Of a DNA stretch of 64,000 nt, positions 990 to 33,860 are shown in pieces. Every line of letters starts with the position of its first letter. Position 1 is the stretch's first letter. Under the pieces are notes generated by a model that worked only from the letters and a program-made list of their open reading frames with translations, ran no database searches and was not told the DNA's origin. The stretch spans positions 6,633,859 through 6,697,858 of the forward strand of contig BFEA01000015.1 of NCBI GenBank assembly GCA_003427395.1, given 5' to 3'. This stretch comes from Chara braunii (Eukaryota; Plantae; Charophyceae). A program made the position numbers and the translations under genes.

Positions 990-2950
990 GTGCTCCTCCT
1001 CCTCTACTCGTCGCTGAAGGTGAGTCTCTACCTCCTCCTCTACTCGTCGCTGAAGGTGAGTCTCTACCTCCTCCTCCTCCTCCTCCCCTTCTTCTTCTTC
1101 CTCCTCCTCGACTTTCACCTCCTCCACCTCCTTCACCTCCCCCTCCTCCTCCTCTTCCTACTCGTCTTCCACCTCCTCCTCCTCCTCCTCCTCCTCCTCG
1201 TTTTCCACCTCCTCCTCCTCCTCCTCCTCCCTTTGCTCCTCCTCTTCCTCCCGCTGTTCCGCTAATGCAGGCATAATCGCCGCCCCTGGAGCCATCGCCG
1301 AGTGCTGCTCCTCCTCTACTCGTCGCTGAAGGTGGGCCTCCACCTCCTCCTCTTCCTTCTCCTCCTCTTCCTACTCGTCTTCCTACTCATATTCCACCTC
1401 CTCCTCCTCCTCCTCCTCCTCCTCCTCCTCCTCCTCCTCCTCNNNNNNNNNNNNNNNNNNNNNNNNNNNNNNNNNNNNNNNNNNNNNNNNNNNNNNNNNN
1501 NNNNNNNNNNNNNNNNNNNNNNNNNNNNNNNNNNNNNNNNNNNNNNNNNNNNNNNNNNNNNNNNNNNNNNNNNNNNNNNNNNNNNNNNNNNNNNNNNNNN
1601 NNNNNNNNNNNNNNNNNNNNNNNNNNNNNNNNNNNNNNNNNNNNNNNNNNNNNNNNNNNNNNNNNNNNNNNNNNNNNNNNNNNNNNNNNNNNNNNNNNNN
1701 NNNNNNNNNNNNNNNNNNNNNNNNNNNNNNNNNNNNNNNNNNNNNNNNNNNNNNNNNNNNNNNNNNNNNNNNNNNNNNNNNNNNNNNNNNNNNNNNNNNN
1801 NNNNNNNNNNNNNNNNNNNNNNNNNNNNNNNNNNNNNNNNNNNNNNNNNNNNNNNNNNNNNNNNNNNNNNNNNNNNNNNNNNNNNNNNNNNNNNNNNNNN
1901 NNNNNNNNNNNNNNNNNNNNNNNNNNNNNNNNNNNNNNNNNNNNNNNNNNNNNNNNNNNNNNNNNNNNNNNNNNNNNNNNNNNNNNNNNNNNNNNNNNNN
2001 NNNNNNNNNNNNNNNNNNNNNNNNNNNNNNNNNNNNNNNNNNNNNNNNNNNNNNNNNNNNNNNNNNNNNNNNNNNNNNNNNNNNNNNNNNNNNNNNNNNN
2101 NNNNNNNNNNNNNNNNNNNNNNNNNNNNNNNNNNNNNNNNNNNNNNNNNNNNNNNNNNNNNNNNNNNNNNNNNNNNNNNNNNNNNNNNNNNNNNNNNNNN
2201 NNNNNNNNNNNNNNNNNNNNNNNNNNNNNNNNNNNNNNNNNNNNNNNNNNNNNNNNNNNNNNNNNNNNNNNNNNNNNNNNNNNNNNNNNNNNNNNNNNNN
2301 NNNNNNNNNNNNNNNNNNNNNNNNNNNNNNNNNNNNNNNNNNNNNNNNNNNNNNNNNNNNNNNNCTTCGAAGCGTCCTGACGATGGTTGGAGGCTCGGAA
2401 TTCTTGAAAAATGTTGTCGAGTGAAACGAAAGATTGGAGTACTAGGAGGAGGAAAGGGCCGACGAGGAGAAGGAGGAGGAAGGATGACGAGGAGGAGGAG
2501 GAGGAGGCAGAGAAGGAAGAGGAGGAGGAGGAGGAAGGATGGCGAGGTAGAGGAGGAGGAGGAAGAGGAAGAGGAGGACGAAGAGAAAGGATGATGATGA
2601 GGAGGAGGAGGAGGAGGAGGAAGAAGAAGAAGAAGAATGAGAAAAGAACGAGGAGGAGGAGGAAGGAGAGGAAGAGGAGGAGGAGGAGAAGGAAGAAGAC
2701 GAAATAGAAGACGAGGAGGAGGAGGAAGACAAAGAGGAGGAAGGGGAGGAGGATGAAGAAGAAGATGCAAGATAGGAGGAGGAGGAGGAGGAGGAGGACG
2801 AGGAGGAGGACGAGGACGACCAAGAAGAGGAGGAGGAGGAGGAGGAGGAGGAGGAGGAGACGGAGGAGGAGGAGGACGACCAAGAAGAGGAGGAGGAGGA
2901 GGAGGATCCAAAATTGGTGGAGCACGAGGAGAGGAGTAGGGAGGAGGCGG
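990..2950. repeat. (CCT)n / (GGA)n low-complexity tracts either side of an assembly gap (N 1443-2364)
   Basis: Runs of cctcctcct at 990-1442 and ggaggagga at 2440-2950. The long ORFs here are low-complexity artefacts. Confidence 0.9.
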
Positions 2951-5863
2951 AGTTCGAACCAACTCCGATACCAAATTGCAAGGAAAATTAGCAGAAGCGA
3001 GATGCCAATAACCAGAATACACAATCACATTGAAAGCAAGAAAGTATTACAGTTTTCAGAAAGCAGCATTGCACCAATATGACACCAATGGAGAATCGTA
3101 ACACTGAAAATCAATGTCAATGAGAGGTTGCTCTCACCACCACCAACACAAGAGTCCAGAACCTTCTTCTTACTTGGCGCAGGCACCTAGCCTACTTCCT
3201 ACACAACTACAATCTGCCTACTAATTGACAATGCAATTGTTGACGTCAGCAGTCCACGAAGTACTTGAAGATGTCGCCCGATGCAGACTATCGCCAATAC
3301 CAGGTTTATGCCCTCACATCATCATCATCATCATCATTCTTCTCTCTCTCCCTCTTCTTACACCCACGTCTTCCTTTTGTACACCCGAAACCACCCCTGC
3401 GCCTCACCGTAGTTCAAACCCATCCAACTATGGAGGCTGGGCTATGGCGCGGTGTCGAGCGCATCGGTCCGGCACCGCACATGGCAGCGCGGGACCCTCT
3501 CGGCCGCGTCACGCAGGAGTTGGACCAACCTCGTCGCGAACACACAAATGAAGCTTCCTTAGGCCGCTCCGGCCGAGTGCGCCAGCCATACCTCTCGCAA
3601 GCCCCTACGACAGGATAGGGCCTACGCGAGGCACAACTTACCTCCACCTTACGGGAGCTGTCACCTCCCTTCGGTGGGCATATCCCCGCCGAGCTACCAG
3701 TCCACAGTACGAAAGCTACTCGGTTGCAATCGCAGAGGTGGACCAGCCGAGGGCTTTTCTCGTTCGCTGTAGCATAGGGGGTACGCGCGGTAATACGCCT
3801 ATCAGACCCGCACGCGGGCCGACATCTTGGGGGGCTGAATTCCCAAGTGTGGCTCGACGTCGGTCGACTAGGACGCATCCCACACACCACGCGCACACCA
3901 CTCTACGAACACAAAAACAAAACACACGCACACGCACACATTGCACAACACAAACAATGCGACAACGCTCCTAGTACCTCGATAGCCAACCCATAACTTT
4001 CCAATGCGGAAATCGGATAGGCGTCGCGCGCGAGACTTAGTATAAAACCGAGCGGACGCAGGGCTAACTCATATCGACTCGCAATGCAAACGTACGCAAG
4101 CAGTCACAATGATAACGTACTATGTCGTGCCCATAATCGTGCAGCCCTCGTTAATTTCGAGCGTCGCATTCGACACTCAAGTGTCGGCTGACACACGCCT
4201 TGAGGGTTAATCTCTCGACGCTGGACAACCGTCGTGCACGGTTGGAGACCACACCCTCTTCTACACCCTGTGCAGAGGGGTTGAGTAGACAACTTTAAGT
4301 TGTCGTGGCGGTCGAACATCAAGGGGTTTGACTTTGACGGCTGCCACGGACTATAACGTCCAACCATGAAAACACAAAAAGGAGACTCACTCCAACCCCC
4401 ATTAGCTGATGGCTCTCTAAAATGGAAAGGGGGTGGATAAGCCTAAACGACGCGCGCGCGGAGGAGGTCCGGTATCCTATCCATAGGCTACCCGGCGTCC
4501 GGGATAATGAGGCCCGAACACGGACCCCCAAAGGCTGACCGGAGCTAGTCCTCCGCCCACGTGCCACTTCACGTTACCAAGACCCCAAGTTTGCTGGCCG
4601 TGTCGCGCTCGTGATCTCGCCACCTGGCCCATAACTCATTTAGTGCGGGATTCGACGAGTGCCGCGCGCGAACTTAGTATAAGATTGCGAGGGCGCTGGA
4701 CTTACACATACTATGTTGCTATGCAGTTCTATGTGAGTAACCGCAATGATGGCGCGTTGTGTAGTGCCCACACCCAAATGACCTACTTTGAGCCAAGGGG
4801 TTCCCTTTCGATGCCCAGGCGTTGGCTGAAGCGCGAGCCAATGGGGGTAACCCTTTAGCTCGTGCAAAACCGGCCTGAGGGCCTTTCCGTCTTCTGCACC
4901 CTGAGGTGTCCCAACGGGTGCGGGGCAAGAGGGCCCCTAGGGCAGGAGGGAGTTTGGAGCGGTGGTGAGTTGTCTGGCGCATCACCAACAACACGCTCAC
5001 CCTTCCGCTCGGAACTTTATCGTTCCACCAAGATAAATCGCAACAAGGAAAAGAAACAAGAACTGGCGAGGGATATCCCCCCCTTTCTATTCACCCCAAC
5101 CTTCGACTGACCCTTAGTACGTGGGCACTTCAGGCCATGCTGGCTCCACACGTAGGTACACATGCACTGGCACGTATATATATATGCACAAGGGAAATAA
5201 TTATGTGACGATCACTTCTCACAGTCATAGTGGGTCTCCTCCTAGCCATACATATATATGCGACCGCAGGGCAGCCCAACCAAAACCCCAAATCTTTGAA
5301 CATACCTGCAATCACATCAAAAGTCAGACAAGAGTCCACCCACTACGCGGTGTCAACTCCAACCAGTTCCCATACTAATACCCCTCACTTTAGCCATGCA
5401 AACCCCAACCTCCAGCCAACCAACCTCAATTAAATACTCAGTACCTTTGTTAAATGGCCATTCAATAAAAGTCCGGGTGAAACCCTTAACAAACAAAAAG
5501 ATCACCAGGGCTAAAGCCTTTTAGGTTGAGTATGGGGAGCGCGTAGGAATTGAGTCGTGAGCCGAAGAATCGGCAACCGACCTGTTATCAGTGATAACAG
5601 ATGATGATCCTTGCAGGATCAACTGAACTAGCCCAAGTCCTGAATCGAATATCCAAGAAAGGCCTATACTATAAGACAGTTCAATGTCCAAGCTAAATCA
5701 TCAGCATACGGGGGATGACCCTTCATAGCACATTCTCACCCAAGTTACCTACCAACTAAATCAAAATCTACCCCTAAGCCAGTGCCCAAGCAAAGGTAGA
5801 CTAACGACAGGATCTCCCCTACTCAGGGTGGATCGCCAGAATCGCCATCTGTCAGAATATAAT

Positions 5864-6270
5864 CTAACTCCTCTAAGTCAAGAAAATTTCGGCAGCGCTT
5901 CCCGTAGGAAAAGTGTCTTTTCAGAATTTATATCAGCCCGAATATGAGAGCAGAAATAGTCTTTGACTTTCCAAAGTCCAATTTTGTCTAACTCCCTGAA
6001 TTAGCAAAAATTTGGGCAGCACTCCGTTTAGAAAAAGAGACTTTTCAGATTTTTACTAAGCCATACATGAACTTTAGACAGGTTGAACTTTGAAAATTCA
6101 AGAATTGACTAACTCCCCGAATTTGTAGAAATTTCGGCATCGCTTCCCGTAGAGAAAGTGACTTACCAAAATTTATACAAAGCCAAGTATAACAAAAGAT
6201 CCCCAAAATTGCGAGAATCGATCTAAGTAAAAAAAACTTAGCTCAGAAAATGCAGGAATTGACCTAACTC
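5864..6270. repeat. Degenerate ~120-125-bp tandem repeat (x3) inside the LTR; second copy ~24613-25020
   Basis: The unit ctaactcc...aaatttcggcagcgcttcccgtag..aaagtg.ctt..caraattta recurs at ~5864, ~5988 and ~6108. Confidence 0.75.
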
Positions 6271-6470
6271 CTATCGCTCTAGCACAAGGCGAGCCTCTAA
6301 AGCAACTACCTGTCAATCTGACACTCAAACCAAGTAGTAGCCTCACTCAGCCTCATGCAGGCCAAACCACAAAGGTAAGTACTCTCGCCACCCCAAATCA
6401 ATCTTTGCAAACAATAGTTCGTAACTTCTCAATGCTTTATCCCCTTATACCTAGCTTACATAGGGCATAA

Positions 6471-7366
6471 AATCAATTCGTCCAATCTTATGGAACTTGC
6501 CTGACTCAGCCATTCAGTATACACGAACAGGTTGCACAACTACTTTTCTCTTCTTTTTGGACATACGACCAGGCCGTTCATCTTAGAACAGGGCTTAGTC
6601 GCCCAGAACTGTTTAATATCCAACTTATATATACCTCTATGAGCTTAGTGTTTAAAAGTTGGGCATAGGACCGAGCCGTTCATCTTAGAACAAGGCCCGG
6701 TCTGCCCACTGCAGGGTTACCTTCAATTATACTCTTAATTATACTCTCTTCATTTTATGATAAGCTATAGCCAGGCCATCCAATCCTATGGAACCCATGC
6801 CTTGCTAGCCTGTTCATACATAGGATGGTATAAAATAGAATCAAAATTTAGCCTTTTGGGTTCCACCATGTGCGAGGCTTTGGGGCAGACCGTCCAATCT
6901 TATGGAACACATCTGGTCCTTTGCCAAGTTCGTTTCTCTCTGATCCACTGTGCACGGCATGAGTCCAAGGCCGTCCAATCTTATGGACATGCTTTGGCCT
7001 CTGCGAGAATTACCCCCTCAGAATAAAACAAGAGGGGGGGCTGAGTCGACCAATCTTATGGACTTGCTCAGACCTCCTCGATCAGAAACAGAAGAAACAG
7101 AACAAACCCCAATCAAACACGACAACCAAACCTTCCAATCTTATGGTACAGGTTCGGCCCCTGAAAAGTCAGCCACAGTCAAACCCTCACAATTCGAAGC
7201 AATCAGACCGTCCAATCTTATGGAACTGGTCTGACTCTCCATGCAAACTCAGAAATAAACATAGCAGTCAGGCCGTCCAATCTTATGCAACTGGATTAAC
7301 TCTCCATGCAAACTCAGAAATAAACACGGCGGTCAGGCCGTCCAATCTTATGGAACTGGTCTGACC
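6471..7366 (+). repeat. Array of 11 stem-loop motifs, core (GG)CCGTCCA-ATCTTA-TGGAAC, in the 3' LTR
   Basis: Cores at ~6479, 6572, 6675, 6774, 6890, 6969, 7045, 7131, 7208, 7271 and 7336, each with self-complementary flanks. Confidence 0.85.
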
Positions 7367-10300
7367 CCATAGGACCCTGTCAACCTCAAGCAAAACCACC
7401 ATTTACCCACCCTTCCCACAGATGCACCCCCTTGTGTTCACAATCTGCCTTCAAGCAATCAACAAACTGAGACTGCGATTGCACACACATTTCTTTATTT
7501 AGTCTGTCTTGTGTCCTGCCAGTCAATCCAAAGTCAAGGTAGGGGTGCATACAGTATACTCAGTCAAACATAGGGGGATGTACAAATAAGGGCTATACAA
7601 GGGTGTATAGAGGGAAGGGAATGGTTACCTCTCAGTTCCCTACCTCCAGAGCCTCGCCTAGGCTCCGGCAGAGCTCCCGCAATCGGTGGGGCAACCTCCC
7701 ACAAAGGCCTCGGCGTGGATTACGGGTTGCAATCCCGCCTGCCGCCTTCCTCTCAGAACTAATGGACTAGACTTAGAATGAGGAAGGCAGAAATAGAGAG
7801 TTGAGTCTCTCAGATACAAGAAGATGCTGTCAGACTCGCAGGAGAGGGCCTTGGTACCTTCATACGCCTGAGGGCCCTGCAATGGAAGCCAAAGTATATA
7901 GCAACTTGGTCAACGAAAGTCCAACCTCCTACCGTTGACCCTCCGGTGACCTTCCAATCAAGAATAATATCCTCTCTTCCGAACGAAACCGGACTCGCCG
8001 TAGAGACCACGACTCGAAATATGAGGACTATGGGTGAGCCCTCTGGCTTGAGGCTCCTCATCAGCCACTTCACTTAATAGGAAGGACTCTGAGGCGGCCA
8101 ACCGCCTAGTACCGCCTCTCGGCTGACCTGTCGTGGCTTCGTTCAACAATAGCCGCCTTGCTGGCCAAAAAGGAGAGTCTGCAGTTCTCACCGTCTGCCC
8201 CTTGTCACTCCGTTCTGCAGTCAATCAGCATACCAGCCAGCAGGCAAGGCTGCAGCCCTGCCACTGTCTCTTTACTTCTCCCCTCACTGAGGTAGGCAAC
8301 TGGTCAGCCAAATGGGCAGATCTTCCCTTGTTGCCCGACCAACGAGGTGAGCAGCTTACTGGGCAACAGATAGGTACTCGACCCGCCCTTCTCCTTGCCG
8401 CCGCTTCCCCTGCAGCTAGCTTACTCAATGGATCATCAGTCCGCTGGTCAGTAGGTAACTCCCGTGGCCGACGTTCTCCCTTGGGCGCAAGTTTGTTCTC
8501 TCACAATGCTCAAACCGTTCTCTTGAAGTCGGATCCGCCACCGCTAGTCAGTCCCCCATACCAGAGAGACCCGCACTAATCTCTTTTCCTACTGAATTTC
8601 ATTTAGAGTCGAGCGCGGAGCCTATTTCTAGCCCCCGCCCTGCCCTTCTCTCCGCCTACGCCACTGTTGTCCTCTCCTGCATGCACCTGGCGCCCGCCCT
8701 CGTCTAAGTTCACCCTCCTTTTTCTCCCCTCCTAACTTCTATCCCACCACCCCTTCGTTAACGCTAACTTCAATGTCGAATTCGCCCGACATCCAACCTC
8801 CAATCAAACCCCTCCACTTACTCGATTTCGTTACGAATCGAGTGGGGAATTCGCTTTCCTTCCTTCCACCATAGCTTTACGCAGCAGCTTTTTCAACTAA
8901 CCCTTTTCCTACTAATCTTTTACTAAATCTAACTACAGATTCGGGATCGCCTTTCCCGAAAACCCTTGTTTTGAGCCTCCACCTGAGTGATTCCGCCCAG
9001 GATTGCACGCGCTACTCTCTCCCCGCTGCGCCAAGCTCGCTGCCCCGCCATCTTCGTTTTCTTATCATGCATGCACCCAGCGCACTTTCGCGCCCGGGTT
9101 CATTCCCCACCTGGTGTTGTGTCCGGCCCTCCGACTTCCTTCTTTGCAGCTACCCGTCGCCCCTCGATACTGCGCTGCGTAGCGCTGCTAGCCCCTCGTT
9201 GCACCCGTCACCCCTCTCCTCACGATCTCTTCTTCCCGCATGTACTCGGCGCCCACCGTCGTCCGGGTTCATCCGCTGCTGTACCCCTGCGCTATCCCCT
9301 CCCGCTGTGTCGTGCTGCCTCCTACTTCTCTCTCCGCTTCCATCCCCGTTTCTTCCTTTCTTCGAACGAATTCGGCGGAAAAGTGCGTCTGGATTCCCTC
9401 CTCTTTGCGCCTGCCTACCCAGCCCTGTTGTCATCACCCCGACCTCCCTGCTCCCCGGTAGTAGTTAGCGCGGCCACGTCCTTCCCGACTGCCCCGATTG
9501 TCGAAACTTTTCGACGGACAAAACTCCCGGTCGCCCTGACCGATCCTCCACTTTAACCACTCTCCTGCTCCTTACGACCCCCGCTAGTCCGTTGCCCTGC
9601 CGGCCGCCCAAAGCCGCGCTACACAGGCTGGCCAACTCCGCCACCCTCATCTGAACCCGGCGGGACCCTCGACTAGGTCCCCTCCCCCTCTTGTGTGCTA
9701 CCTTCACGCTGGGGTGGGGCCGCAGAAACCTCCTCTGCGCAGTTCCAATTGTAACGGGTACCCCGAAGGACCTAATCGCGGTGGTACCCCACCCACGGTT
9801 CTTCGAAACTTGAACTCTCGGTCGAGGCACCGCGTCCCAAGTCAAATGGGACCACGCACAATAACGAAAATAATAAAACAATATAAAAAAAGAAAATGGT
9901 AACAAGGGCGAAATAAGATAATCATAGCCCAAAAAATCCCGAGCAAGATGCGGAGGCCACAACGCCCTACCGGCCCCGTGGACCCGGTCCACTGCCGCGT
10001 CCATCAGCAAAAGCCGAAGGGGGACAGCCCCGTCGGGCCCTCAACCCCCTCAACTTTTCCATACGCTCCGCTACCGCCGCGCCAACGCCGCTGGCCTCGA
10101 TCTCTACACTTCCACCGCAATAGCCCAATACCGTAAGCAATAGGGCTAAGCCCAAGCCTGGTGCAATGGAGCGCGAACTCCAATATGAGGTGGTGCCGCG
10201 CCGCGCTTAGGCCTGGGAATAACAGCTTGGGCCTTCCTGTCCAACCACGGCCGGCACGCCATCACCAGGCACCGGCACCAGCCTACTTGAGCCGTGCCGT

Positions 10301-12742
10301 GGCTATCCCACGGGCCACCCCGCGCGCCAGTCCTACCGTCGACCGTGCATGCCGACCCAAAAGCGGACTTTTATCCCTTAGTCAAAACCGTAGTACGGTC
10401 CAGGTTGGTCGACTAGGCCGACCGTTCACTCAATCAAAGAAATCACACGCGCGCCTTAATTTGCGCCCCCACATACCCCCTAACTTAGCCAGGGCGGGTC
10501 TCGGACGCGGTCGTGCCTCGCATGGCTTATTTCAACCAAACTCATTGTTCCCTGTCATCTGCAAAAACCCAGGGTGGATACCCTTGTAAGGGTATTCGCG
10601 CCGACAGCCTACCGGACTATATTAAGCGACATCCCCGTCGCTACACCAAATCAAAAGCTATAAATTTATCCACACTCCAAATGCTGACGAGAAAGGAATC
10701 CAATCCGATTAGCCGACAGACTCAGGGTTGAGGCCTCCAACACTCCATGCCGACATAATTATATGCTGCTAGGGTTTCAACTTGGGTTTCCAGTGTCCTG
10801 ACGCTAGGACGCAGGTGTATTACGCATCAATACTACAGCATACGTTCCAAAGGCCACCTCAAACCATCCTTTTTTCTTTGTCCTAGACAAACGTCGACTT
10901 TTTGTTGGGTGTCCCGGTTAGACTCTCTCTCGTACGCAGAGTCATAAGGGGACGCGGGCTTTAGACGAGACCTCAGAAGGCACTCTCGCTTCCCTCACAA
11001 AAACCCTCACAATCAAACATATATATATACATAAATCTCCTTTCGACTCTTTCTGCAGTCTAGCACAGAAACGCTAGGTCTCCATCCTGGCCCACCATAG
11101 TCCGGTTGATCGAGCCAGATCTACGGCCTACCACATTGTTATCTTAGCGGCAGTCCCTTCGTTGGTTATGCAACAATAGGTTTTCTCCTGATAGGCATTC
11201 AATCAGAGCGCCCAAACGACTCGACTCGTATCCCCCGCCATTCCACCAGAGTAATTTCCTTGGGGCGTGCATAAGCTCTTAAACTCGTACTCTGCTGGTA
11301 GACGTGGGCCCGCAGCCAGGTTGTGCTGGCTTGCAGCCATCCAATAGGGGTTGCACCCTAGAGGTGCTAACTTTTACCGTTTAGCTTGGTATTCCCTAAT
11401 ATGCCTTAGGATTAGCACAGGTGTCTAGGCGGTGCGTCGCAAAACAAACTCACAGGGCCACTGCGGGACGACGCAGGGATCTGCCCTACTTTTAAGGGTA
11501 TTTACCAGCCCCCTATGGGACAATATAGAGGGCACGGCCCCTTCTCACAATCACAAACAATCTCACCGCTAGGCTCACAAGAGGCCGTGGCCTACTGACT
11601 TGATCAGAGACAGCAGACCACACATCCCACGACATCTTTATGCACTAACTTGCGACCTTCTCGGTTCCACCAATGATTCCAACTCGTGATCCTGGTTCCT
11701 CTCGTCAGACTTTATCATTCAAACATTGTTTACCATGTCCTTAAATCTATCAGCCATTTTTTACACGAAGGGGGTCTCTATCAACAGGTCTCCCAACCAC
11801 CCCTCTCTTTACAGGATGGACTATCACGCGACCTGGGTTACACTGCTGTCAATAAACAACATCCCCACCTTCCATAATCCGAGGGGGTCTCAATTATAGA
11901 ACAACTCAACTGAGGGGCCTTCTTATGGGCCGTCTCCCCAACTTAAACGCAAAACAACTCAAACTAAGGGGCCAACTTATGGGTCCCCTTCACAGCTCAG
12001 CCATAAACATTCGGCATGGTAAGCATCTGTGCCTTATAGGCTCGCAAGACCCCTTAGGGTCCTCATACATCTGTCACAAAAACGACCGCGTTGCCTCCTC
12101 TTATACCCGGCCGTTCCGCCCACCCATGGGCAGGCCGCACGAGTATACCGAAGAGTAGACGGCAATTACAATCACACAATACACATACATGAGATGTATC
12201 CCACACATCTCTCACACAAAGCCCTCATTCATTGGGATAAAGCCACACGTGTGAGAGTGATCGTGATCGTCACAATAATAAGTCCCACAGAGTCTGGAAT
12301 CAAAGATATACTCGGGAGCAAAATATTTCCCTCAAGTCTCAATACGACACTCAACTCAAACCCTCAACACACAACTCGTAGGGTGTATTTGGGAACAAAA
12401 TGCCTGCCCCGAAAACACTAAAATGCTCACTCCACTGTCTCACTCCGCAAGATAAACTCACGTCCCAAGTGTCATGGACTCTCAGAACCTACTCAAAGAT
12501 ACAAATAAGAGTATCTGAATCACACAACTGAAAATGCAAGTCACGTATGTCGTAGATATCATACAACTAAGTCTCATCCCCTAGACCGTATCACACATAA
12601 AGCTCAAGCCGATCACACACCGCCACCTATGTTTATATAACTAGACGGGACTCGCCTGACTAACTCAGAGTATGTACACTCCTATCACGGTCTCTGCGTA
12701 CAGAGGAGCTCTAATCCTACTGTCATATAGACGGACCAGTCC

Positions 12743-15633
12743 CTACTCACTCATAGCCTTCTGGATCTGTCTATATAACTGTGCCCTACCCCCATTTGGA
12801 GCCCACTCTACCACTCGCCCCTGCCTGTCGTACATTCTCCCACCACTCTCTGTTACTCTCCTAGCCGCCTTGTTCTTAAGGAACTTCGGGCATTCAAGAG
12901 CTCTATGTACGCCGTCCTTGCAGAAGAAGCACTAATCGTCCGATCTCCCCCGACACCTCCTCCTCTTCTTCTGGGACCCAGGCAACGGCGGCGTCTCGTT
13001 AGTTTCCCTACTCATCTCATGGCTCTGGGGCATACTCCATGACTCTGCCGGCCCCGCCTCCATCATCTGGGTACTCGGCCCTGCTAGCGCCTCACCGCCC
13101 TCGGGTCGGTACGTTGGAGTGTCCAATCTCAGTGGCCTACCCTCGCGGACTCCTCCCATCGCAGTCGCCCCCTCGTCCCTATGCAGGTCAGAGGGCTGGG
13201 GAGTCACGGCAGTCGCTGGCTCGCTCATAACTTCCTGCTGCTGCTCTGAGATGTGCTCTCTTGAGTCAGCTCCAGTAGCCCAAGAGCCTAACTGCGTCCT
13301 CAGCTCCCCTATCTCTGGCACACGCTCTTGGGTCTTCTATCTCTGAGGCTCTCCTGACGGCATGTCCAACTCCATAGCGACCACTAACTCATCCAGTCGA
13401 GACGCCTCTCCCCCCATTGCCTCCGGCTCAGTGGATGCTGCTGCTCCCGTAAGGGCACCCTCCTGCACCTCCAAAAGGATCGTAGGGGACTCCTCTGTGG
13501 GGCCCCCTTCCTCCAATGGAGGTTGGGGTCCCTGCGCCGGCTCGCCCTCAGGGATCTCAATCGTCATAGGGGTGGCCTGTTGCGAGGCCAACTCCGTTGG
13601 CGTCCTGAAGCTGAACCTCTCCTCCTCGGCCTCCCGCCGTGCTGCCGCCTCTATTGGGTCCAAAAATATCTTCCCCATACCTCCTTGCTGAGGTGGCTCT
13701 GTCGTCCTTTCCCAGCCAAAGAGCCCCTGTACCTCCTCCCCCTGGATACCATACCGGCTTTGCTCCATCCAGTCGACCACCTTAGTGGCCGAGAGCCTCT
13801 CCACCATCGCCGCCATGTCCCGGAGCCTCTTCTCCCATTCCGCTTCCTTAACTTCCATACGGGACCTCCATGCTTGATTTTCTGCCCTCTCTTCTGCCAG
13901 TTGGGTGGACAACTGTCCCACCTCTAACCTCGAGGCCGCCAACTCATCGCTGAGCATGGAGTACCGTTGGAAGGACGAGACCGCCACCTCACCTATCCTC
14001 CTATCTGTACGCTCAATCTCCATCCTGGCGGCTGAAAAATCCCCAAGTCCTCTATCTCTCGTGCCTCGTCCAATCTTGCACTTCCCTGTCCTACCTCTCG
14101 CGACCTCAGGCGAGCCGCATCCCTCTCGCTCTCATAGCTGGCCCAAGCCTCACTAATCCTCTGCTCGCTCGTCGGAGGGTCAATTGGCGGCTTTGGCGCT
14201 TCTCCTGCGACCTCCATCCTAAGCTTTTCGTGGTATAGCTCTTCGAGGCGTACCTGCACCCTCGCGCGTTTCTCTTCTTTCGTCTCCCCCGGCAGCCTCC
14301 CTGTCCTCGCCTCGTGACCCTCTCGCAGTGGATCTCTCGCACTTGTCCCCTCTTCTACGGGTGGCGTCCCTGGCGGAGGCTCCCCGGATGTCGGCACCTC
14401 CACATCCATGCATGCACATGTAGACTCAGTTAGTTGCGGCGCCACAGTAGTAGGTGTCCTCGCCCTCTCGCCCCCATCTGGCTCCGCCTGTGTCGGGGGT
14501 GGCGTAGTAGCTTCCGGTGGGGGCCCCAACATCTCCTCGCTGTCCGGTTCATGAATTCCTTCAAGCCAATACTGCCGCGCCTGTTCTGGCATCGGGGTAG
14601 GAGGAGGGGTATCATCCCCAATAGTGATAAACCCCTCAGTCTGCGGCTCCTCGGGTTCGCGAGACCCCGTCTCAGGCCCCGACTCAGGTGGCTCCTCCTC
14701 TGGCTCATCCTCTACTGGCTCATACCGTGCCGGTCTGCTCTGGTCCGCCCCCAGCTGTGACGCCCCCCACTGGGACGCATCGAGATGAGCCTCCAACCTG
14801 TCGAGTTGCGTCCTCAACGGCACCGCTTCTCCCCCCTCTGGTAACGTCGGCGACGGGCCCCGTAGATCACTGCCCATGATTCGGCGAAACTCCACCTGCT
14901 CGAGTCCATAGGTAGCGGGTAGCTCCGCCGCCTGAGCTGGCCCCGCGGCCTGAACTGGCTCCACCGCCTAGGCGGCCTCTGCAGGCCCCTCTCGCTGTGC
15001 CAAGGCCTTTCGGCCCCCTCTGGTCGTAGTGGTCCCTCTCGCCTCTGGGCCCCGTGGCCTCTTACTCCTATGTCGTCTCTCCACCCTGGGCTCTGGTCTC
15101 TCGGGCTCCAGTCGTCGAAACGCCTGTCTGAACTGGGCCTGGCAGTCCTCCCAGTCGTGTGCTCTGTCCCGGACCTGCCTCGCCAACGACCTCTCCGCCC
15201 TCCGTGTCCAGAGGGGCAGCATCTGCATCCACTCCTCCTGCCCAGTCCCCTGGTCGCGCATATACTGCTCATAGGCCGGGATGAACTCCTCCGCATTGCC
15301 TTCCTCCAATCGAATAGGCAATCCATCCGGTCCCATCGGCGAAGCCCTCAGCATCTGCATCCTCGCCTCCACATTCTGCCATGTCAACGCCTCCTCTCGA
15401 ATGTGCGCAATAGGTTCCTCGAAGCGCCCAACTCCCCTCAGGTGTCGTATCCTTTCCAATGTAGACCAGCTCTCCCATGTCGCATGTGCCTGGTAGGAGT
15501 CCAGAAAAAGCTTTATGTTACCGTCGTCGAAGATAGGTGTAGACTCCCTCCCAACCGATCTGCGCGAGTCATCCCCTCTTGATGCTCCCTGAGGCCTCTA
15601 TCGTGGCAGCGCACCCCTCCCGCCCCTCTTCAT
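12743..15633 (-). pseudogene. Extra ORF downstream of integrase: second Gag-like protein (~960 codons; four in-frame TAG stops and one frameshift near 14040)
   Basis: ATG at 15633 (MKRGGRGALPR). Capsid-like PIFDDGNIKLFLDSYQ...TWQNV and PIRLEEGNAEEFIPAYEQ...DWEDCQAQFRQAF. Pro/Glu-rich and coiled-coil-like middle. CFFCKDGVHRALEC (CX2CX4HX4C) at 12931-12890. Final stop at 12745-12743. Joins track ORFs 14968-15459, 13993-14964, 13337-14023 and 12932-13321. Confidence 0.8.
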
Positions 15634-15655
15634 GGCTGTCTTCGAGAAGTCAGAC

Positions 15656-15701
15656 CTGCACAACAGGCGAGAGAAAGCAAGCAGGCACACAACAAGGTTA
15701 G
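15656..15701 (-). promoter_or_regulatory. Putative 3' splice acceptor upstream of the extra ORF
   Basis: Minus strand: CTAAC branch-point motif (15701-15697), pyrimidine-rich tgcctgcttgctttctctcgcctgttg, then TGCAG|G (AG at 15657-15656). The ATG is 22 nt downstream. Confidence 0.6.
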
Positions 15702-16903
15702 CCCTCGGTCCCTGATACCCAATCCCGCCAGCCTGTCCCGTCCAGCTCCTCGATCTGATAGGCCCTAAATTCGCCGCATTGCAATATTCTATAGGGCCCC
15801 AACCATCTCTTGTCAAGCTTCCTCGACCATTGCTTTTCCAAAGAGGAGTCGTATAATAATACGACATCCCCTACTGCCAATGACTCCTTTCTTACTCGTG
15901 TCATCTGGTCCCACCTCATCTTATCTTCCATGCGACTTCTTTCCACCTGACCAGCGGCCTCTCGCAATCTTTCTTCGGCCGCCCCCACTTGTCGCGCCCG
16001 AATATCGAGCAGTTCTTCGAACAACAGGTTTACCTCCAAGTCCTGGCGCCTCCATGTCTTCATAAAGCTTTCTATGGGAAATGTGGCATGCCTCCCGTAC
16101 CATAGTGTGGCTGGCGCGTACTTGGTAGTCCTCTTTACAGTAACATTCTCCACGAAGAAAGCTGCCCGTAGGAACTTCGGCCACTGACCAGGTTTGCCCT
16201 TTGTCCACTTAGCCAGGAGATTCGTGATGGTACTGTGCCCCCTCTCCACAGGAGCGTTCGCTTGAGGGTGTGCAGCCGTAGTATAGTTGGCCACTACGCC
16301 ATACCCTGCAAGCAACGTCCTCACCTCATTGCAGGTAAACTATGATCCTCGATCCATCACGAACTCCCTGACAAAAGGGTATCGCACGTAATACTCCTCG
16401 ATGCAGTTCGCCAAAACCGGGTCAGTCTTCGTCCGGATAGCTCGTCCGTCCACAAACCCAGTAAGGTTATCCCGTGCATCAAAGATGTAGTTACACCCAT
16501 TCTCCCCTGCTGGCATGAATAACAGGTCCAGGTGCACGACCACACCCACTTCCCTTTCTAACCTTGGGTGTAAAGGTTCTCCAGGCCTTTGCGCCGACCT
16601 CTCTTGGCAAGGTATACAGGACCGGCAGTATTTGATAACCATCGTCAGCATCCCGTCCCAATGGTAGAGCTCGCTTATCTTCGCGCATGTGGCACGTACT
16701 TCTCTGTGCCCCCTTGCTATACCATCGTGTAGGGCCGCTATGATATCAATTTGCCGGTTTCTCCCACATACGATCCTCTTGGGGTTCCCGACCTGCCGCT
16801 TTATAAACAAGTGACCGTCTCTTACCACATAGAGGTGCCTCATCTTCTGTGCCTTGGCACTTGCATCTCTATCCCTCATCTCACATGATAGGAGCAACCC
16901 CAA
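15698..16903 (-). pseudogene. Integrase domain of pol (interrupted by TAG at 16342-16340)
   Basis: HHCC zinc finger (LHDGIARGH...CRSCIPCQ), DDE residues in VHLDLL, MDRGS and NAPVERGH, and a GPY/F motif (RWLGPYRI). No chromodomain visible. Confidence 0.93.
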
Positions 16904-16982
16904 TTCCCGGTAGATCCCATCGTACTCCTCCGCCTGAAACGCCTCCTTGATTTCTCCTTCCTTGAATTCGTCGTCTCGGCTT

Positions 16983-18660
16983 TCAGGAACCAGAATCTCT
17001 GAACGAGCTCTTCCGGTCGAAGTCTCCCTGTAGGAGCGTATTGGTGAGCAGGTACATCCCTCTCATTAGCTGCTCATGCTCCTCTACCTGCGTGGGGTCT
17101 TCCTCTATTGTCCTCACTTCCTCCACCAGACTGTGCGTACCTGCCAACGCCAACTTCATCATCCAACCAACATCCTTACTTCCCCACGGATCCTCCTCAT
17201 GAAAGGGCTTGAGGACTAACTCTTCCTTCTGCTCGTACCCCTTTGGTGCCAGCCATATGGGATGACTGACGCAACTAGGCAATCGCAGGGACCATTCGTT
17301 TATGTGCAGGTGGACGTCCTCCTCTTGATCGAAAAACCCATCAACTGGCGGCGTGTCTTCTATCGATTCCTCGTCCGATCCGTCCCAGTTGATGCGGCTT
17401 AACCCATCTGCCCTGTTCTTGTTCCCTGGGATCCTTTCCAGCTCGAAATTAAACATCCAAATGTAGGTCAACCATCTTGCGACGGTTGGATCAGATAGAG
17501 TATAATTCTTCAGGGAACATGCCAGTGCAGTAGGGTCCACCCTCAAGATGAGCCTCCTGCCAAAAACATAGTTCTGGAAGGTCCTTAGGCAATGAAGTAC
17601 CGCCAGCGTCTCCTTCTTGAACTGAGAGTAGTTCCTCTTAGTTGTATTGAGGGTACGACTTTCGAATCTTAGCGGCCTCTCCTTCCCCTCTGTATCTGCC
17701 TGAATCAGGACCCCTCCCAGGGCAGTTGGCCCAGCGTCCGTCTCAATGACGAATGGTCTTTCCTCCGTGGCCTCATAGTTTGGCGCTCCCAATACCAAGC
17801 CTCCTTCCTTAAACTCTCCCTTTATCCTACCGACCGCCTCTTCCTGGTCTTCGCCCCAGACCCATTCTTGATCTTGGCGCACCAACTTCCTTAAATGCTC
17901 CGTCTTCGTGGCAAAGTCCTTCACGAAGCTCCTCCAAAATCCGCACGTCCCAAGGAAACTCCTCACATCTGCTATCGAGCGGAAGGGCACCGGCCACTCA
18001 AGAATCTTGTCTGTCTTCTTTACATCAGGTCTTCGCCCACTCTCATTACAGACAAAGCCTAGAATCGTGGCCTCCCTCATACAATGTTTCGACTTGGGGC
18101 CGCTCGCCGTCAGGTTATGTTCCCCCAATAACTCCAGAACCTGATCAATGTCTTGGACATGCTTCCAGACAAAGCGTCGCACACCGGGCATCACTTCATC
18201 TTCCTCCTTCTCCTTCGGACCTTTGACTGCCAGGTCATCGATATAGGGCTGAGTGATATGTGGGCTGACCGTCTGCATGGCTCTGATCATATACCTTTGC
18301 ACCATCGCCACTGCATTCATCCAACCTTGAGGCGCCACGTTCATATGAATCAGCCCTCTAGGAGTGTGCATTGCCGTTACGGGTCTGTCTGGCGGGTATA
18401 TGGGGAATTGGTCATACCCCGAGTAGAGGTCTATAAGCGAGATTATAGGCCTCCCTGCGCACGATTCTGACAATGCGTCCGCGTTCGGCAATCCCCCCGC
18501 GTCCTGCACTGTCACTGCATTTAGCTGTTGCAAGTCCTGCACCCACCTTAGCGTCCCATTTGGTTTAATAAAACAAAACCAAGGCGACGCGTATGGCCCA
18601 CTGGAATAATCGGCCACGTGCGTCCGCATCTTGCGGTCCAGGTAGTCCACCACCATCAGC
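16983..18660 (-). pseudogene. Reverse transcriptase and RNase H of pol; RT N-terminus apparently lost by deletion near 18660
   Basis: PYASPWFCF, LIDLYSGYDQ, PQGWMNA, YIDD (18245-18234), VRSFLGTCGF; RNase H IETDAGPTALGGVL, KETLAV and NRADGLSR. Confidence 0.95.
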
Positions 18661-19542
18661 CCTATCTTCCTCCTCGGGTACTTCCCCAAGCCATCTCCGC
18701 TTGTTCTCTGACTCCTCAAAGGTGAACGAGCCTAGATTGGGCCTATTCCTCTCGCTCCCCAGCCCCGTGTTCCGGCAGGTGATAACTTCATAATTCTCAC
18801 ACGCCGGGTCACACAGGAGCAGGATCATTGTTTCATCGTGCTTGTTGAAGATCAACATTTCCGTCCGGCACAGGAATGACTGGCCCAGAAGGATGGGGTG
18901 ATCGACATCGGGCATAACGAAAAAGCAAGTTCTGGCTCACACCTTCCCAATCTCTATAATCACATTTGACGTTGTGCCGCAAAAGGCGGCCTTGCAGTTA
19001 GCGCCGTGCAACACGCCATGGTTCGAGCGGTCGATCTCCATGCCTATCATCACTGCCTCATTTTCCCTGATGATGTTCATCTCTGCACCCTTGTCCACCA
19101 TCCCAGTACACTTCAGGTTCCTTATCACCAAATCCACCTGCCCGCACGCCACACATTTCCAATCCATCCTTGTCCCTGCCTCAGTCCACTCTACCTCTCT
19201 AGGCAGGACCGTACTCAGATGGACATTTGGCACCAACCTTCGCGACAGTCGTCCCTTCAACTCACCATGGAGGCTTGGCGCCGAAGCCAGGATGTCCTTT
19301 AGGTTCATCAAGTCATTGTGGCCTTCCAGGAGCTTGTCCACCATCCGCTCCACATCAAAGCCTTCCTCCATCCGGACCGCGTACTTCTTCCTCTTAGGCA
19401 CGCTGTCAGGCACGCTTGGCTCGGCCTCCTCCTGGGCCCCCCTCTTTTTGGCCCTCAGCTCCGCCCGCTGATCCTCCTCTTGTCGGAGCCTCTCATCCTC
19501 TTCATCGTCATCCTTTTCCTCTTCCTCCGGAACCTTCACCAC
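18660..19542 (-). pseudogene. Aspartic protease region of gag-pol; catalytic motif reads DKG rather than D[ST]G
   Basis: GMVDKGAEMNII (D codon at 19095) followed by DHPILLGQSFL, a typical retropepsin C-terminal motif. Confidence 0.85.
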
Positions 19543-19584
19543 CTCCTTCCTACGTCCAGGCTCCGGCTCCTTTCGAGGGGGTGC

Positions 19585-21593
19585 CTAACTGGGCACCTGA
19601 CTGGGCTCTTGACTATGCCCAGCCTTATTTTGGCTCCTGGTCCTAGCCGCCTGCGGCACCCTCCCATGCGACGTGGGGGGTCTATAGGTCATACATGACC
19701 TAGGGCCCGTCCCTACAGTCGCCACTCTTGGGCACCCTTGTTGTCCTGGCGAAGGCTCTGGCCCGGAGTCATAAAGGAAGACCTCAGGCAGGTTGGCCTC
19801 CCACTCTCGGGCTTCTTCACACAGGGCTTGCAGCTTCCGCTGGTATCTCCCCACCTTTTCCAGCAGATCTTCCATCCTTCCCAGGAGGAGTGTGGACGGC
19901 TCTCCTTCGCCTTTCTGCCCCTCATCGTCCAATTTGACGACTATTGGCTCCTCTCTTATAGTCCCCGCCTTTAGTCGCTGAGTGACCTCCTCGCTATCTC
20001 CCACAATCTCCTCAACTTTTATGGCCAACTCTCCTTTNTCCTGCCACATCCTNAACATGGTCGGGGTTGNCGATGGCCCTGNCGCCGCTCGCCTAAGAGC
20101 TNCTTGCCTGATTCCTCCCGGGGTCCTAGGGTCNATATGCTCTCCCCACTTATCATATATATNNCCGTCCANACAAGAGGAAATTAGACCTGCCAACTCA
20201 TCATCTCGCCGCCGTTGGCAGAACCGTATAGTGTGGCCCACCTCGCTACAATGCCAGCAGGTGGCGTTTCGCCACTCAAAGCGGGGCCTCCCATACCCTT
20301 GGCCCCCCTCTTGGCCACCTCGGCCGCCTTGGTTCTGACCCCCCTGACCATTCCAACCACCCCCGCGATCCCCACCATTTCCTCCTCGGCCTCGGCCGCC
20401 ACCCCCTCGACCCCCGTGACCTCGGCCCCTATTGCCTTGTCCGCCTTGTCCTTGGTTTCTTCCACTGGCCACGCTAACCTGCGAGGCCTGTTGGGAGGGA
20501 GGTGGTTGGGCCATAAACTGACCCTGAGCCGCAGGGTAGCTCGGGGGCCCCATACTTGCCGTTGGGCCCGCTTAAGGGACCATTTGCCCGGGCTGAGTCT
20601 GACTATCCCCGCACGAGGCGCAGTGATTACAAACTGGGCCAGTACGTAGGCTGACAATGCGGCACCCAATGCCCACAAGCCGGAGGCGGCCCCATACATG
20701 ACGGCCCGGCCGTTGCTGACGTTGTCGTGGCTGCAAGTGGCGGCGCAGCAATCGCATGCGGGACCTGTCCTTTTCCGGATCCTTGACCCCCCACTTGTAA
20801 ATTTCGCTGCTTCCTCTAGGCCTTGGTTAGAATCTGGGAGCCCGTCTCTTCTCCGCCATAGTCCTCGCGCCTAGCCTCCTCTTCCACTGCCCCCGACGCC
20901 CGGCCTTGGGCCACGGTCACTCCCCTCTTCTGCACTTCCGCCTCATTATCATACCCCAGCACTGCCAATACGTCCATGACGATCCTCTTCACCCCTGGGG
21001 TCCCGAACGCGGTGGCGTCCGTTTCCTTTCTCTTGCGTCTTTGCAGCCGCACCTGGTGCTGCTCCACCTGGTCCAGTCTCCCCTCCTCCACCCCTTTGTC
21101 GATAGTGGCCCAGGTGATTTCTCATTTCCCCCTTCGTGACCCGTCAGCTCCGAGGCCTCCGAGCCAGTAAGCAGACCCAAAAATATGGCACACTGCGTTT
21201 CTTCGGAGATCCCGTGCACCTTCCGCGCCTTCTTTTTAAACTCGTGCACAAACGCCCCAATCGTGGAGAAAATCCATCCCCCAACCTGTACTTTCTCTGC
21301 ATCATGTCCCTGAACCTCGCCCAACTACCATTGGCGGCATCCACGACCTTGCCCACTTCCTGATGGTGGCTATGAAGGACATATCTTAAGACTCGCTGAA
21401 GCTTGACCTCGTCCGACAGCCCCACCAGTGCTTGCTCCGTCAGGTCCAGCCAGTCGGACATCCGTTCTCCCTTGAAGTGGAAAGTATCAACCTTCGGAAC
21501 ATTGCTCGGCGCCCTCTCGCGCTTATCCAGGGCATCGATGAGGTCGTCGAGCGTTACAAGCTTTCTCCCACCATCCGCCATCTCCTCAGGCAT
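19585..21593 (-). pseudogene. gag (capsid plus nucleocapsid), frameshifted and stop-interrupted
   Basis: ATG at 21593. Capsid-like FHFKGERMSDWLDLTEQ...SWARFRDMMQRKY, a Gly/Arg-rich tract, and the zinc knuckle CWHCSEVGHTIRFC at 20259-20218. Confidence 0.9.
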
Positions 21594-21987
21594 TTTGATT
21601 AACTGCCTTCGGCTTCAATCCCCCTGTTATAAGAAGCGATAGGACGAAAGGTTCCACTCAGCAGTCCATTCCTTCATGATCCTACCAGACCGACCACCTA
21701 AGCACCCAACGCTTTGGACCTGGCAGACATTTCTCTCTCTACTTCCTACCTCCTTTGGGTTCACCTAAGTAAGACCCATTCTCATCACAGAATTCACTCA
21801 CATACTCGTCTCGTTCATGCCATCAACCAAACCACCAATCAGATCAACATTCATACCCACACAGCCATATAGACTACTATACAACCCATCTCATAGTTCT
21901 TCTCTTATTTGCTCACGTACCTATTTCTCTCTCATTCTCATATTACCCGGATGTCGTTCCCACAGGAACGGCGGTAGGCTTCCGTTA

Positions 21988-22005
21988 TCCCCGGCAACGG
22001 CGCCA
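21988..22005 (-). promoter_or_regulatory. Primer-binding site complementary to the 3' end of tRNA-Asp
   Basis: Minus strand TGGCGCCGTTGCCGGGGA, 2 nt inside the 5' LTR. This is the known plant tRNA-Asp PBS sequence (as in Athila-type elements). Confidence 0.92.
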
Positions 22006-25000: not shown

Positions 25001-28000
25001 GGAGGAATTGACCTAACTCCTATCGCTCTAGCACAAGGCGAGCCTCTAAAGCAACTACCTGTCAATCTGACACTCAAACCAAGTAGTAGCCTCACTCAGC
25101 CTCATGCAGGCCAAACCACAAAGGTAAGTACTCTCGCCACCCCAAATCAATCTTTGCAAATAATAGTTCGTAACTTCTCAATGCTTTATCCCCTTATACC
25201 CAGCTTACATAGGGCATAAAATCAAGCCGTCCAATCTTACGGAACTTGCCTGACTCAGCCATTGAGTATACACGAACAGGTTGCACAACTACTTTTCTCT
25301 TCTTTTGAGGCATACGATCAGGCCGTTCATCTTAGAACAGGGCTTAGTCGCCCAGAACTGTTTAATATCCAACTTATATATATATCTATGAGCTTAGTGT
25401 TCAGAAGTTGGGCATAGGACCGAGCCGTTCATCTTAGAACAAGGCCCGGCCTGCCTTGGGTTACCTTCAATTATACTCTTAATTATACTCTCTTCATTTT
25501 ATGATAAGCTATAGCCAGGCCGTCCAATTTTATGGAACCCATGTCTGGCTAGCCTGTTCATACGTAGGATGGTATAAAATATAATCAAAATTTAGCCTTT
25601 TGGGTTCCAGCATGTGCAAGGCTTTGGGCCAGACCGTCCAATCTTATGGAACACATCTGGTCCTTTGCCAAGTTCGTTTCTCTCTGATCCACTGTGCGCG
25701 GCATGGGTCCAAGGTCGTCCAATCTTATGGACATGCTTTGGCCTCTGCGAGAATTACCCCCTCAGAATAAAACAAGACGGGGGGTTGAGCCGTCCAATCT
25801 TATGGACTTGCTCAGACCTCCTCGATCAGAAACAAAAGAAACAGAACAAACCCCAATCAAACACGGCAACCAAACCCTTCAATCTTATTGTACAGGTTCG
25901 GCCCCTGAAAAGTCAGCCACAATCAAACCCTCACAATTCAGAGCAATCAGACCATCCAATCTTATGGAACTGGTCTGACTCTCCATGCAAAATCAGAAAT
26001 AAACACAGCGGTCAGGCCATCCAATCTTATGAAACTTGTCTGACTCTCCATGCAAACTCAGAAATAAACACAGCGGTCAGGCCGTCCAATCTTATGGAAC
26101 TGGTCCCTGTCAGCGTCAAGCAAAACCACCTTTTACCCACCCTTCCCCCAGATGCCCCCCCTTGTGTTCACAATCTGCCCCCAAGCAATCAACAAACTGA
26201 GACTGCGATTGCACACACATTTCTTTATTTAGTCTGTCTTGTGTCCTGCCAGTCAATCCAAAGTCAAGGTAGGGGTGCATACAGTATACTCAGTCAAACA
26301 TATGGGGATGTACAAATAAGGGCTATATCAGGGTGTATAGAGGGAAGGGAGTGGTTACCTCTCAATTCCTTGCCTCCAGAGCCTCGCCTAGGCTCCGGCA
26401 GAGCTCCCGCAATCGGTGGGGCAACCTCCCACAAAGGCCTTCGCGAGGATTACGGGTTGCAATCCCGCCTGCCGCCTTCCTCTCAGAACCAATGGACTAG
26501 ACTTAGAATGAGGAAGGCAGAAATAGAGAGTTGAGTCTCTCAGATACAAGAAGATGCTCTCAGACTCGCAGGAGAGGGCCTTGGTACCTTCATACGCCTG
26601 AGGGCCCCACAATGGCAGCCAAGGTATATAGCAACTTGGTCAACAAAAGTCCAACCTCCTACTGTTGACCCTCCGGCGACCTTCCAATCAAGAATAATAT
26701 CCTCTCTTCCGAACGAAACCGGACTCGCCGTAGAGCCCGCGACTCGAAATATGAGGACTATGGGTGAGCCCTCTGGCTTGAGGCTCCTCATCAGCCACTT
26801 CACTTAATAGGAAGGATTGTGCGGCGGCCAACCGCCTAGTACCGCCTCTCGGCTGACCTGCCGTGGCTTCGTTTAACAATAGCCGCCTTGCCGGCAAAAA
26901 ATGAGAGTCTGCAGTTCTCACAGTCTGCCTCTTATCGCTCCGTTCTGCAGTCAATCAGCATACCAGCCAGCAGGCAAGGCTGCAGCCCTGTTACTGTCTC
27001 TCTACTTCTCCCCTCACTGAGGTAGGCAACTGGTCAGCCAAATGGGCAGATCTCCCCTTGCTGCCCGACCAATAAGGTGAGCAGCTTACTGGTCAACAGA
27101 TAGGTACTCGACCCGCCCTTCTCCTTGTCGCCGCCTACCCTGCAGCTAGCTTAATTAACGGATCATCAGTCTGCTGGTCAGTAGGTAACTCCCGTGGCCG
27201 ACGTTCTCCCTTGGGCGCAAGTTTGTTCTTTCACAATGCTCAAACCGTTCTCTTGAAGTCGGATCCGCCACCGCTAGTCAGTCCCCCATACCAGAGAGAC
27301 CCGCACTAATCTCTTTTCCTACTCAATTTCATTAAGAGTCGAGCGGGACGCTTATTTCTAGCCCCCGCCCTGCCCTTCTCTTCGCCTACGCCACTGTTGT
27401 CCTCTCCTGCATGCACCTGGCGCCCGCCCTCGTCTAAGTTCACCCTCCTTTTTCTCCCCTCCTAACTTTTATCCCACTACCCCTTCGTTAACGCTAACTT
27501 CAATGTCGGATTTGCCCGACATCCAACCCCCAATCAAACCCCTCCACTTACTCGATTTCGTTATGAATCGAGTGGGGAATTCGCTTTCCTTCCTCCCACC
27601 ATAGCTTTACGCAGCAGCTTTTTCAACTAACCCCTTTCCTACTAATCTTTTACTAAATCTAACTACAGATTCGGGATCGCCTTTCCCGAAAACTCCAGTT
27701 TTGAGCCTCCACCCGAGTGATTCCGCCCAGGATTGCACGCACTACTCTCTCCCCGCTGTGCCAAGCTCACTGCCCCGCCATCTTCGTTTTCTTATCATGC
27801 ATGCACTCGGCGCACTTTCGAGCCCGGGTTCATTCCCCTCATGGTGTTGTGTTCGGCCCTCTGACTTCCTTCTTTGCAGTTACTCGTCGCCCCTCGATAC
27901 TGCGCTGCGTAGCGCTGCTAGCCCCTCGTTGCACCCGTCACCCCTCTCCTCACGATCTCTTCTTCCCGCATGTACCCGGCGCCCACCGTCGTCCGGGTTC

Positions 28001-33742: not shown

Positions 33743-33860
33743 ATGTCGACAGGTGAGACTTCGCTGATGGGAGAGGCGGGGGGCTCCACGTCAGCAGGAA
33801 GCAGACGACCAAAACGCTTCGAGATCAAGAAGTGGAACGCTGTTGCGCTTTGGGCTTGGG
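33743..33860 (+). CDS. RBX1: RING-box protein 1 (cullin-RING/SCF E3 subunit), exon 1 of 5
   Basis: [39 protein letters not shown]; donor G|gtatcg. Confidence 0.95.

Follow-up and report, generated by a model that had tools for sequence, protein, structure and literature searches.

The window, by which we mean the whole 64-kb stretch of Chara braunii DNA that was analysed, holds a Ty3/gypsy element of 25.8 kb on the minus strand. Its 5' LTR lies at 22008-29285 (7278 bp, including an N gap at 22062-22541) and its 3' LTR at 3453-10608 (7156 bp, with TG...CA ends and a 5-bp terminal inverted repeat). The two LTRs differed at 331 of 6734 aligned bases (4.9%). We observed a target duplication of 4 bp, GCGG, at 3449-3452 and 29286-29289, and the empty insertion site was visible in read ends at 3450. 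The primer binding site (21988..22005, minus strand) starts 2 nt past the 5' LTR and is, we assume, of the tRNA-Asp type. Gag-pol is present in pieces at 15698..21614 on the minus strand and comprises Gag1 with a CCHC knuckle near 20259, RT, RNase H, an integrase zinc finger and a weak SH3-like end. The element thus has the TG...CA LTRs, the target duplication, the primer binding site and the order of gag followed by RT-RNase H-integrase that define Ty3/gypsy. Relatives of its RT were named Chara braunii gene models in 118 of 120 cases among the matches listed. About 2 kb of non-coding sequence precede the 3' LTR, and no polypurine tract of the classic form was seen directly ahead of it (10609-10640, minus strand). 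Within the LTR we also noted an internal repeat of about 85 bp in two copies (4020-4100 and 4655-4735, 74% alike). The element is surrounded by another repeat (2950-3452; 29286 onward), and what we take to be a tRNA-Met-type primer site on the minus strand near 2965-2975 suggests that this repeat is the LTR of another element. A host gene starts at 33743 and runs onward on the plus strand; its first residues presumably resemble those of RBX1.

Past the integrase lies Gag2, a second Gag-like ORF (12750..15666, minus strand) that contains stops in this copy and has a C-terminal CCHC knuckle near 12931. Its N-terminal part was predicted to adopt a capsid-like fold (mean pLDDT 75). When the model was used in a fold search, Arc, dArc and Ty3 capsids took the top ranks, at E values of only 0.1-0.6 and with none below 0.001. 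The Gag2-like ORF is conserved in about 100 family proteins. The labels Gag1 and Gag2, which came from the sequence-only reading, are reasonable, as two Gag-like ORFs with CCHC knuckles do exist, and both proteins are candidate ligands of the array described below. The two-Gag Ty3/gypsy layout (12750-15666, minus strand) deserves a study of its own. We compared the element with two lineages. Phygy elements prefer NCGN targets and are short (PMC6317226); the GCGG of this single insertion fits NCGN, but the size does not fit, as a Phygy element has its internal part filled by the polyprotein and ours measures 25.8 kb with an extra ORF and about 2 kb of non-coding DNA. In the OTA lineage (Athila/Tat/Ogre), elements carry an additional ORF and extensive non-coding regions, and their LTRs are very long (PMC6317226). 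The size and the extra ORF of our element match this lineage, whereas its 7.2-kb LTRs exceed the roughly 5 kb reported there. For neither Phygy nor OTA did the sections of this source at hand describe a second capsid-and-knuckle ORF past the integrase, such as the one found here (PMC6317226).

Each LTR carries an array of 11 hairpin units, and the claim that the array was kept in both LTRs was confirmed. In the 3' LTR, folding and motif count placed the array at 6470..7367 on the minus strand, with units at 6470-6507, 6566-6601, 6668-6703, 6768-6807, 6882-6919, 6963-6999, 7038-7074, 7123-7160, 7200-7237, 7265-7302 and 7330-7367, and with loops starting at 6485, 6580, 6682, 6783, 6897, 6978, 7053, 7138, 7215, 7280 and 7345. 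The same array occupies 25219..26105 (minus strand) in the 5' LTR, where loop starts span 25234-26089 and unit 11 is without its outer arm owing to a 14-nt deletion. The loop ATCTTA was indeed present in 10 of 11 units: it occurred 10 times in the 896 bases of 6471-7366, while 0.34 occurrences were expected from base composition. The one odd loop, ATCCTA, also exists; it starts at 6783 and not near 6774 as first given, and the 5' LTR reads ATTTTA there. The spacing of 63-120 bp had to be corrected slightly, to 65-114 bp. The spacers, described as mostly unrelated, include three that are related (6, 9 and 10), and units 9-11 form a recent 65-bp tandem repeat; therefore the array likely grew by duplication. 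The closure of the loop was read correctly (TCCA/TGGA-type in 9 units, GTTC/GAAC in 2), but the two types do not differ by a simple compensatory substitution, because the GTTC/GAAC head has one pair fewer than the TCCA/TGGA head.

In the sense orientation of the element, each unit comprises about 7-12 bp of lower stem, a 5' bulge of 1-4 unpaired bases, 4-5 bp of upper stem and the loop UAAGAU. In most units one side has two more bases below the upper stem. All 22 loops share one orientation, and the asymmetric bulge was never ironed out. CCAAT is found in 9 of 11 units; both GTTC units (2 and 3) are without it, yet they retain the loop, the bulge and the stem. When correctly centred units were folded (unit 4 excluded), 7 of 10 per LTR reached z <= -2.5 on the minus strand and 6 of 10 on the plus strand. 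In folds of the whole array on either strand, the probability of the loop-adjacent pair exceeded 0.5 in 9-10 of 11 units. Under DNA parameters, 8 of the 11 units folded on the plus strand in each of the two LTRs, and 8 and 5 units did so on the minus strand. Of the 22 units, 20 were recovered by a covariance model trained on 10 units, which missed both copies of unit 2 and found nothing beyond the array units at E < 1 within the 64-kb window. CpG is scarce in the array (observed/expected 0.54). A separate set of repeats lies at 5860-6270 and 24609-25020, with three units spaced about 120 bp apart (a fourth is partial) that begin CTAACTCC; two of its units fold into long sense-strand hairpins, and its DNA depth is very high. 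We also noted a perfect antisense splice-donor consensus at 6372-6382 (plus strand), just past the array in both LTRs, which may be due to chance.

The lower stems had been said to differ in sequence and still pair, and this was borne out: of 99 cells per LTR, 70 held Watson-Crick pairs in the first LTR and 66 did so in the second. Arms paired better with their own partner (6.44 Watson-Crick pairs of 9 in both counts) than with the partner of another unit (4.25 and 4.40; p ~5e-5). These counts covered 9 units, without units 10 and 11, used registers chosen by eye and were tested by a permutation that ignores descent among units. The advantage persisted when cross pairs were allowed to slide by 2. 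A register-free test on folding energy, which likewise ignores unit descent, gave p values between 5e-5 and 1.4e-3 when 9 units were used and between 6e-4 and 1.1e-2 when 7 were used. Own-partner pairing was the better in every test run. In five disjoint sister pairs we observed 8 double changes vs 5.7 expected, which is marginal (p = 0.056). Six of these retain Watson-Crick pairing and one is a transversion pair (units 6 vs 7), which counts in favour of co-variation because decay through methylation does not give such changes. Covariation on 10 gap-free rows was marginal, with 12, 233, 22, 498 and 40 of 500 shuffles reaching the five observed measures. RNAalifold found no structure in a 22-row MAFFT alignment, in which registers and short-head units were misaligned. 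Among the non-Watson-Crick cells shared by both LTRs, 11 of 12 were simple transitions. The proposal that selection acts on structure rather than sequence therefore holds up in part: the arms co-evolve under a fixed loop, and the signal is marginal in the tests least exposed to relatedness.

We consulted other copies of the family through tables of reads placed on the window (40 of 882 and 40 of 342 rows, selected by the tool). At all 8 listed loop or upper-stem positions at which this copy deviates from the motif, the letter most frequent in the family brings the motif back, at 94-100% of DNA depth. For departures in the lower stem, the family letter betters pairing at 9 of 10 listed positions; at the shared stem position 25421 it pairs worse. 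The DNA depth summed over the array was about 8,000-13,000 vs 12-19 in a near-unique part of the LTR, which is not a copy number and points to an LTR family of hundreds of copies. Since insertion, loops, stems and spacers of this copy changed at like rates between the LTRs (7/154, 14/194 and 32/549). This is the decay of one copy, as expected if the copy is dead, and gives no support for selection. We consider the array real and probably selected.

The sequence-only reading placed most G.U pairs on the plus strand, antisense to the element. We did not observe such an excess (plus vs minus, 8 vs 11 in one LTR and 12 vs 12 in the other). In cells common to both LTRs there were 4 on the plus strand vs 10 on the minus strand, a lean to the sense strand that was not significant (two-sided p = 0.18). 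Stem changes at 25221, 25319 and 25899 leave a sense-strand G.U and likely predate the insertion, because they are common to both LTRs; one change goes the other way. In two poly(A) RNA runs, first mates over the array on the plus strand stood at 0.97 vs 0.08 (X6) and 0.85 vs 0.08 (X8), figures that come from a depth of about 1 read, from 6-13% of each run, mostly from diverged copies and without a strand control gene. If the libraries are of the usual stranded kind, this side of the first mates is that of sense RNA. A third run, X7, had reads in both directions, tracking DNA depth both ways, as genomic DNA or an unstranded signal would. The proposed antisense or single-stranded DNA ligand is thus disfavoured, as there is no wobble excess on the plus strand and stranded RNA favours the sense strand of the element. 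We infer that the sense strand, with the loop UAAGAU and the 5' bulge, is the functional one.

Just upstream of the array in the sense direction lies a high-copy, RNA-rich block (7629..7885, minus strand; 26359-26635 in the 5' LTR), which has roughly six times the DNA depth of the array and holds most of the RNA reads. At its 3' end is an AG|GTAA donor-like site (7629/7628, minus strand); in read ends of a diverged subfamily, read by eye, this site stands in the same place though its flanks differ. The sole sense-strand AATAAA of the LTR (7494..7499, minus strand) is followed by a G/U-rich stretch and is a candidate poly(A) signal on weak evidence; an A-rich signal is absent in most streptophyte algae according to the part of PMC1868727 used here. 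The array begins about 130 nt past this AATAAA and 260 nt past the donor-like site. From the block to the array, RNA per DNA depth fell from 3.0 to 0.57 in X6 and from 5.9 to 0.51 in X8, and was flat at 21 in X7; per copy, the array was 5-11 times rarer than the block in the poly(A) RNA of X6 and X8. Because it is downstream of the RNA-rich block and the donor-like site and rarer per copy in poly(A) RNA, the array probably lies in U5 or in a leader intron; unequal expression of subfamilies could also give the drop in RNA. No spliced joint was seen among the read rows listed, and neither the transcription start site nor the poly(A) site of the LTR was found. A TATA candidate near 7900 was rejected, as RNA reads with other letters extend beyond it and the depth declines in step with that of DNA. 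Between the donor-like site and gag lie 4.7 kb with 75 ATG; translation of gag therefore probably depends on splicing or some other bypass, in which case the array would be a mark of unspliced RNA. A packaging signal placed past the splice donor would be restricted to unspliced RNA.

The same block, the most transcribed and the highest in copy number, is overlapped by a possible LTR-internal ORF (7565-8073 and 26295-26803, minus strand), which ends near the donor-like site. Several synonymous changes in one frame, seen when read ends of the diverged subfamily were compared with this copy across the block, hint at a coding frame. The putative frame has stops in both LTRs of this copy, and its protein matched none of 254 candidates of longer length and none of 210 family proteins.

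We looked for the array elsewhere. Rfam over 3400-10700 gave one weak, unrelated match and none relevant to the array. A metagenome scan returned 2 single 19-mers without array or lower stem, which is near chance; viral contigs gave 0 matches to the array, and prokaryote genomes gave 3 unrelated tandem repeats and no such array. Our literature search found no description of it; the supplements of the Chara genome paper, outside the scope of that search, may describe the family. The sequence-only reading had likened the array to MS2 and CsrB. Like MS2/PP7 and CsrB/RsmZ, it combines a fixed loop on an exchangeable stem with avidity by repetition. CsrB is a free bacterial small RNA whose loops carry GGA, and the CsrB-like label fails since GGA is absent from the loop on either strand (ATCTTA or TAAGAT). 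Natural MS2/PP7 operators are single sites, in contrast to 11 units arrayed in an LTR. Lentiviral TAR has a 5' pyrimidine-containing bulge, a short upper stem and a hexaloop on the sense strand of the LTR. The array resembles TAR in the pyrimidine-containing 5' bulge, short upper stem, hexaloop and sense strand of an LTR, and differs in its loop, UAAGAU, and in its 11 copies; neither the TAR models of Rfam nor the TAR loop sequence matched the array.

The nearest plant case is that of the maize Sireviruses Ji and Opie, whose LTRs hold several short symmetric motifs with predicted hairpins. As far as the excerpts of PMC4728375 go, these palindromes average 7.3 per LTR and are siRNA hotspots; they are near-perfect, with arms better kept than the centre, and occupy the upstream half of Copia LTRs of 1.3 kb. 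Our array has the opposite conservation, with a fixed loop, co-varying lower arms and an asymmetric bulge, and it belongs to a Gypsy element with 7.2-kb LTRs. We rejected the array as Sirevirus-type palindromes since its loop is invariant, its lower arms are variable and its bulge is asymmetric. Retroviral packaging signals and Ty1/Ty3 encapsidation offer another likeness, namely RNA structure at the 5' end that a zinc knuckle of Gag recognises (PMC4974528, PMC11499389). In the portions of these papers seen, the known signals consist of a small number of dissimilar stem-loops close to the PBS or downstream of it, whereas the array has 11 like units within the LTR, about 3 kb ahead of the PBS. 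According to the part of PMC4974528 available to us, it is not precisely known where Gag binds Ty1/Ty3 RNA.

The explanation we tentatively favour, at somewhat less than an even chance, is that the array is a multivalent docking site on sense RNA for an RNA-binding protein encoded by the element, which would select full-length unspliced RNA for export or packaging. The array may have grown by tandem duplication of a unit of about 65 bp, the spacers drifting apart as selection preserved the loop and the pairing. In unspliced genomic RNA it would stand close to the 5' end, and RNA that is spliced or terminated early would lack it. A fixed loop and bulge on exchangeable stems has the look of a hairpin recognised by a protein, with 11 copies providing avidity; the ligand could be Gag1, Gag2 or the possible LTR-ORF protein. 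A narrower form, which we regard as doubtful, makes it a natural counterpart of an MS2 array, i.e. an 11-fold hairpin address read by a dedicated protein of the element (Gag2 or LTR-encoded). Such a protein might decide whether full-length RNA is translated, exported or enclosed in one of two kinds of capsid.

The main rival to a docking site on RNA is an array of duplex CCAAT-type sites. Here the core would be a transcription-factor site in a DNA enhancer or insulator and the stems by-products of a duplicated quasi-palindrome, their complementarity upheld by template switching and transition-biased decay. We judge this fairly unlikely. Several points suit a duplex site: conservation is much higher in the core than in the flanks, G.U and A.C pairs are divided almost evenly between the strands, the most conservative covariation tests gave marginal results, CpG is depleted as noted above, and Sireviruses offer known cases of repeated palindromes in LTR cis-regions (PMC4728375). 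It does not explain why units 2 and 3 keep loop, bulge and stem without CCAAT, why 22 of 22 loops have one orientation with a bulge never ironed out, why one transversion is compensated, or why own-partner pairing wins every test run. The version of the sequence-only reading, in which structure matters on the plus strand as antisense RNA or as first-strand cDNA in reverse transcription, appears quite improbable. The plus strand folds about as well per unit and at least as well under DNA parameters, and X7 has many reads in the direction expected of plus-strand RNA; against this, the G.U excess is missing, X6 and X8 indicate sense RNA, and X7 follows DNA depth both ways.

Hairpins in sense RNA could instead control transcription or processing, either as an elongation signal like TAR or as a switch for read-through or splicing, by which the 5' LTR would choose between a short RNA and the full genome just past the donor and candidate poly(A) site. 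The sense geometry (5' bulge, 4-5 bp, hexaloop) is TAR-like as TAR is generally described, the array follows closely on the sole AATAAA and on the donor-like site kept in the diverged subfamily, and RNA per copy falls at the array. In foamy viruses, as given in the part of PMC3694450 consulted, the splice donor is tied to poly(A) choice. We still think a switch unlikely: it has no Rfam match, the 3' LTR has the same array after the same site, and 11 copies over 900 nt would suit avidity better than a single switch. It is very improbable that the hairpins act as a decoy for a host RNA-binding protein or feed Dicer-like enzymes, as the stems, interrupted by a bulge, measure no more than about 12-15 bp and it is the loop, not the stem, that is fixed, even if Sirevirus LTR palindromes are siRNA hotspots and predicted templates of hairpin RNA (PMC4728375).

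Even in yeast, the means by which LTR retrotransposons pick out the RNA of their own that they package are poorly defined, as far as the part of PMC4974528 at hand goes. An 11-fold fixed hexaloop, natural stem variants and hundreds of copies make this question directly testable, with one short RNA, two or three candidate proteins and compensatory mutants already built in. A cognate pair of hairpin and protein, if true, would be a new orthogonal RNA tag. If the docking site is real, it would mean retrovirus-like control of RNA in the algal sister lineages of land plants, and if the array also works in the MS2-like manner, this algal retrotransposon would possess an RNA-protein switch like that of complex retroviruses.
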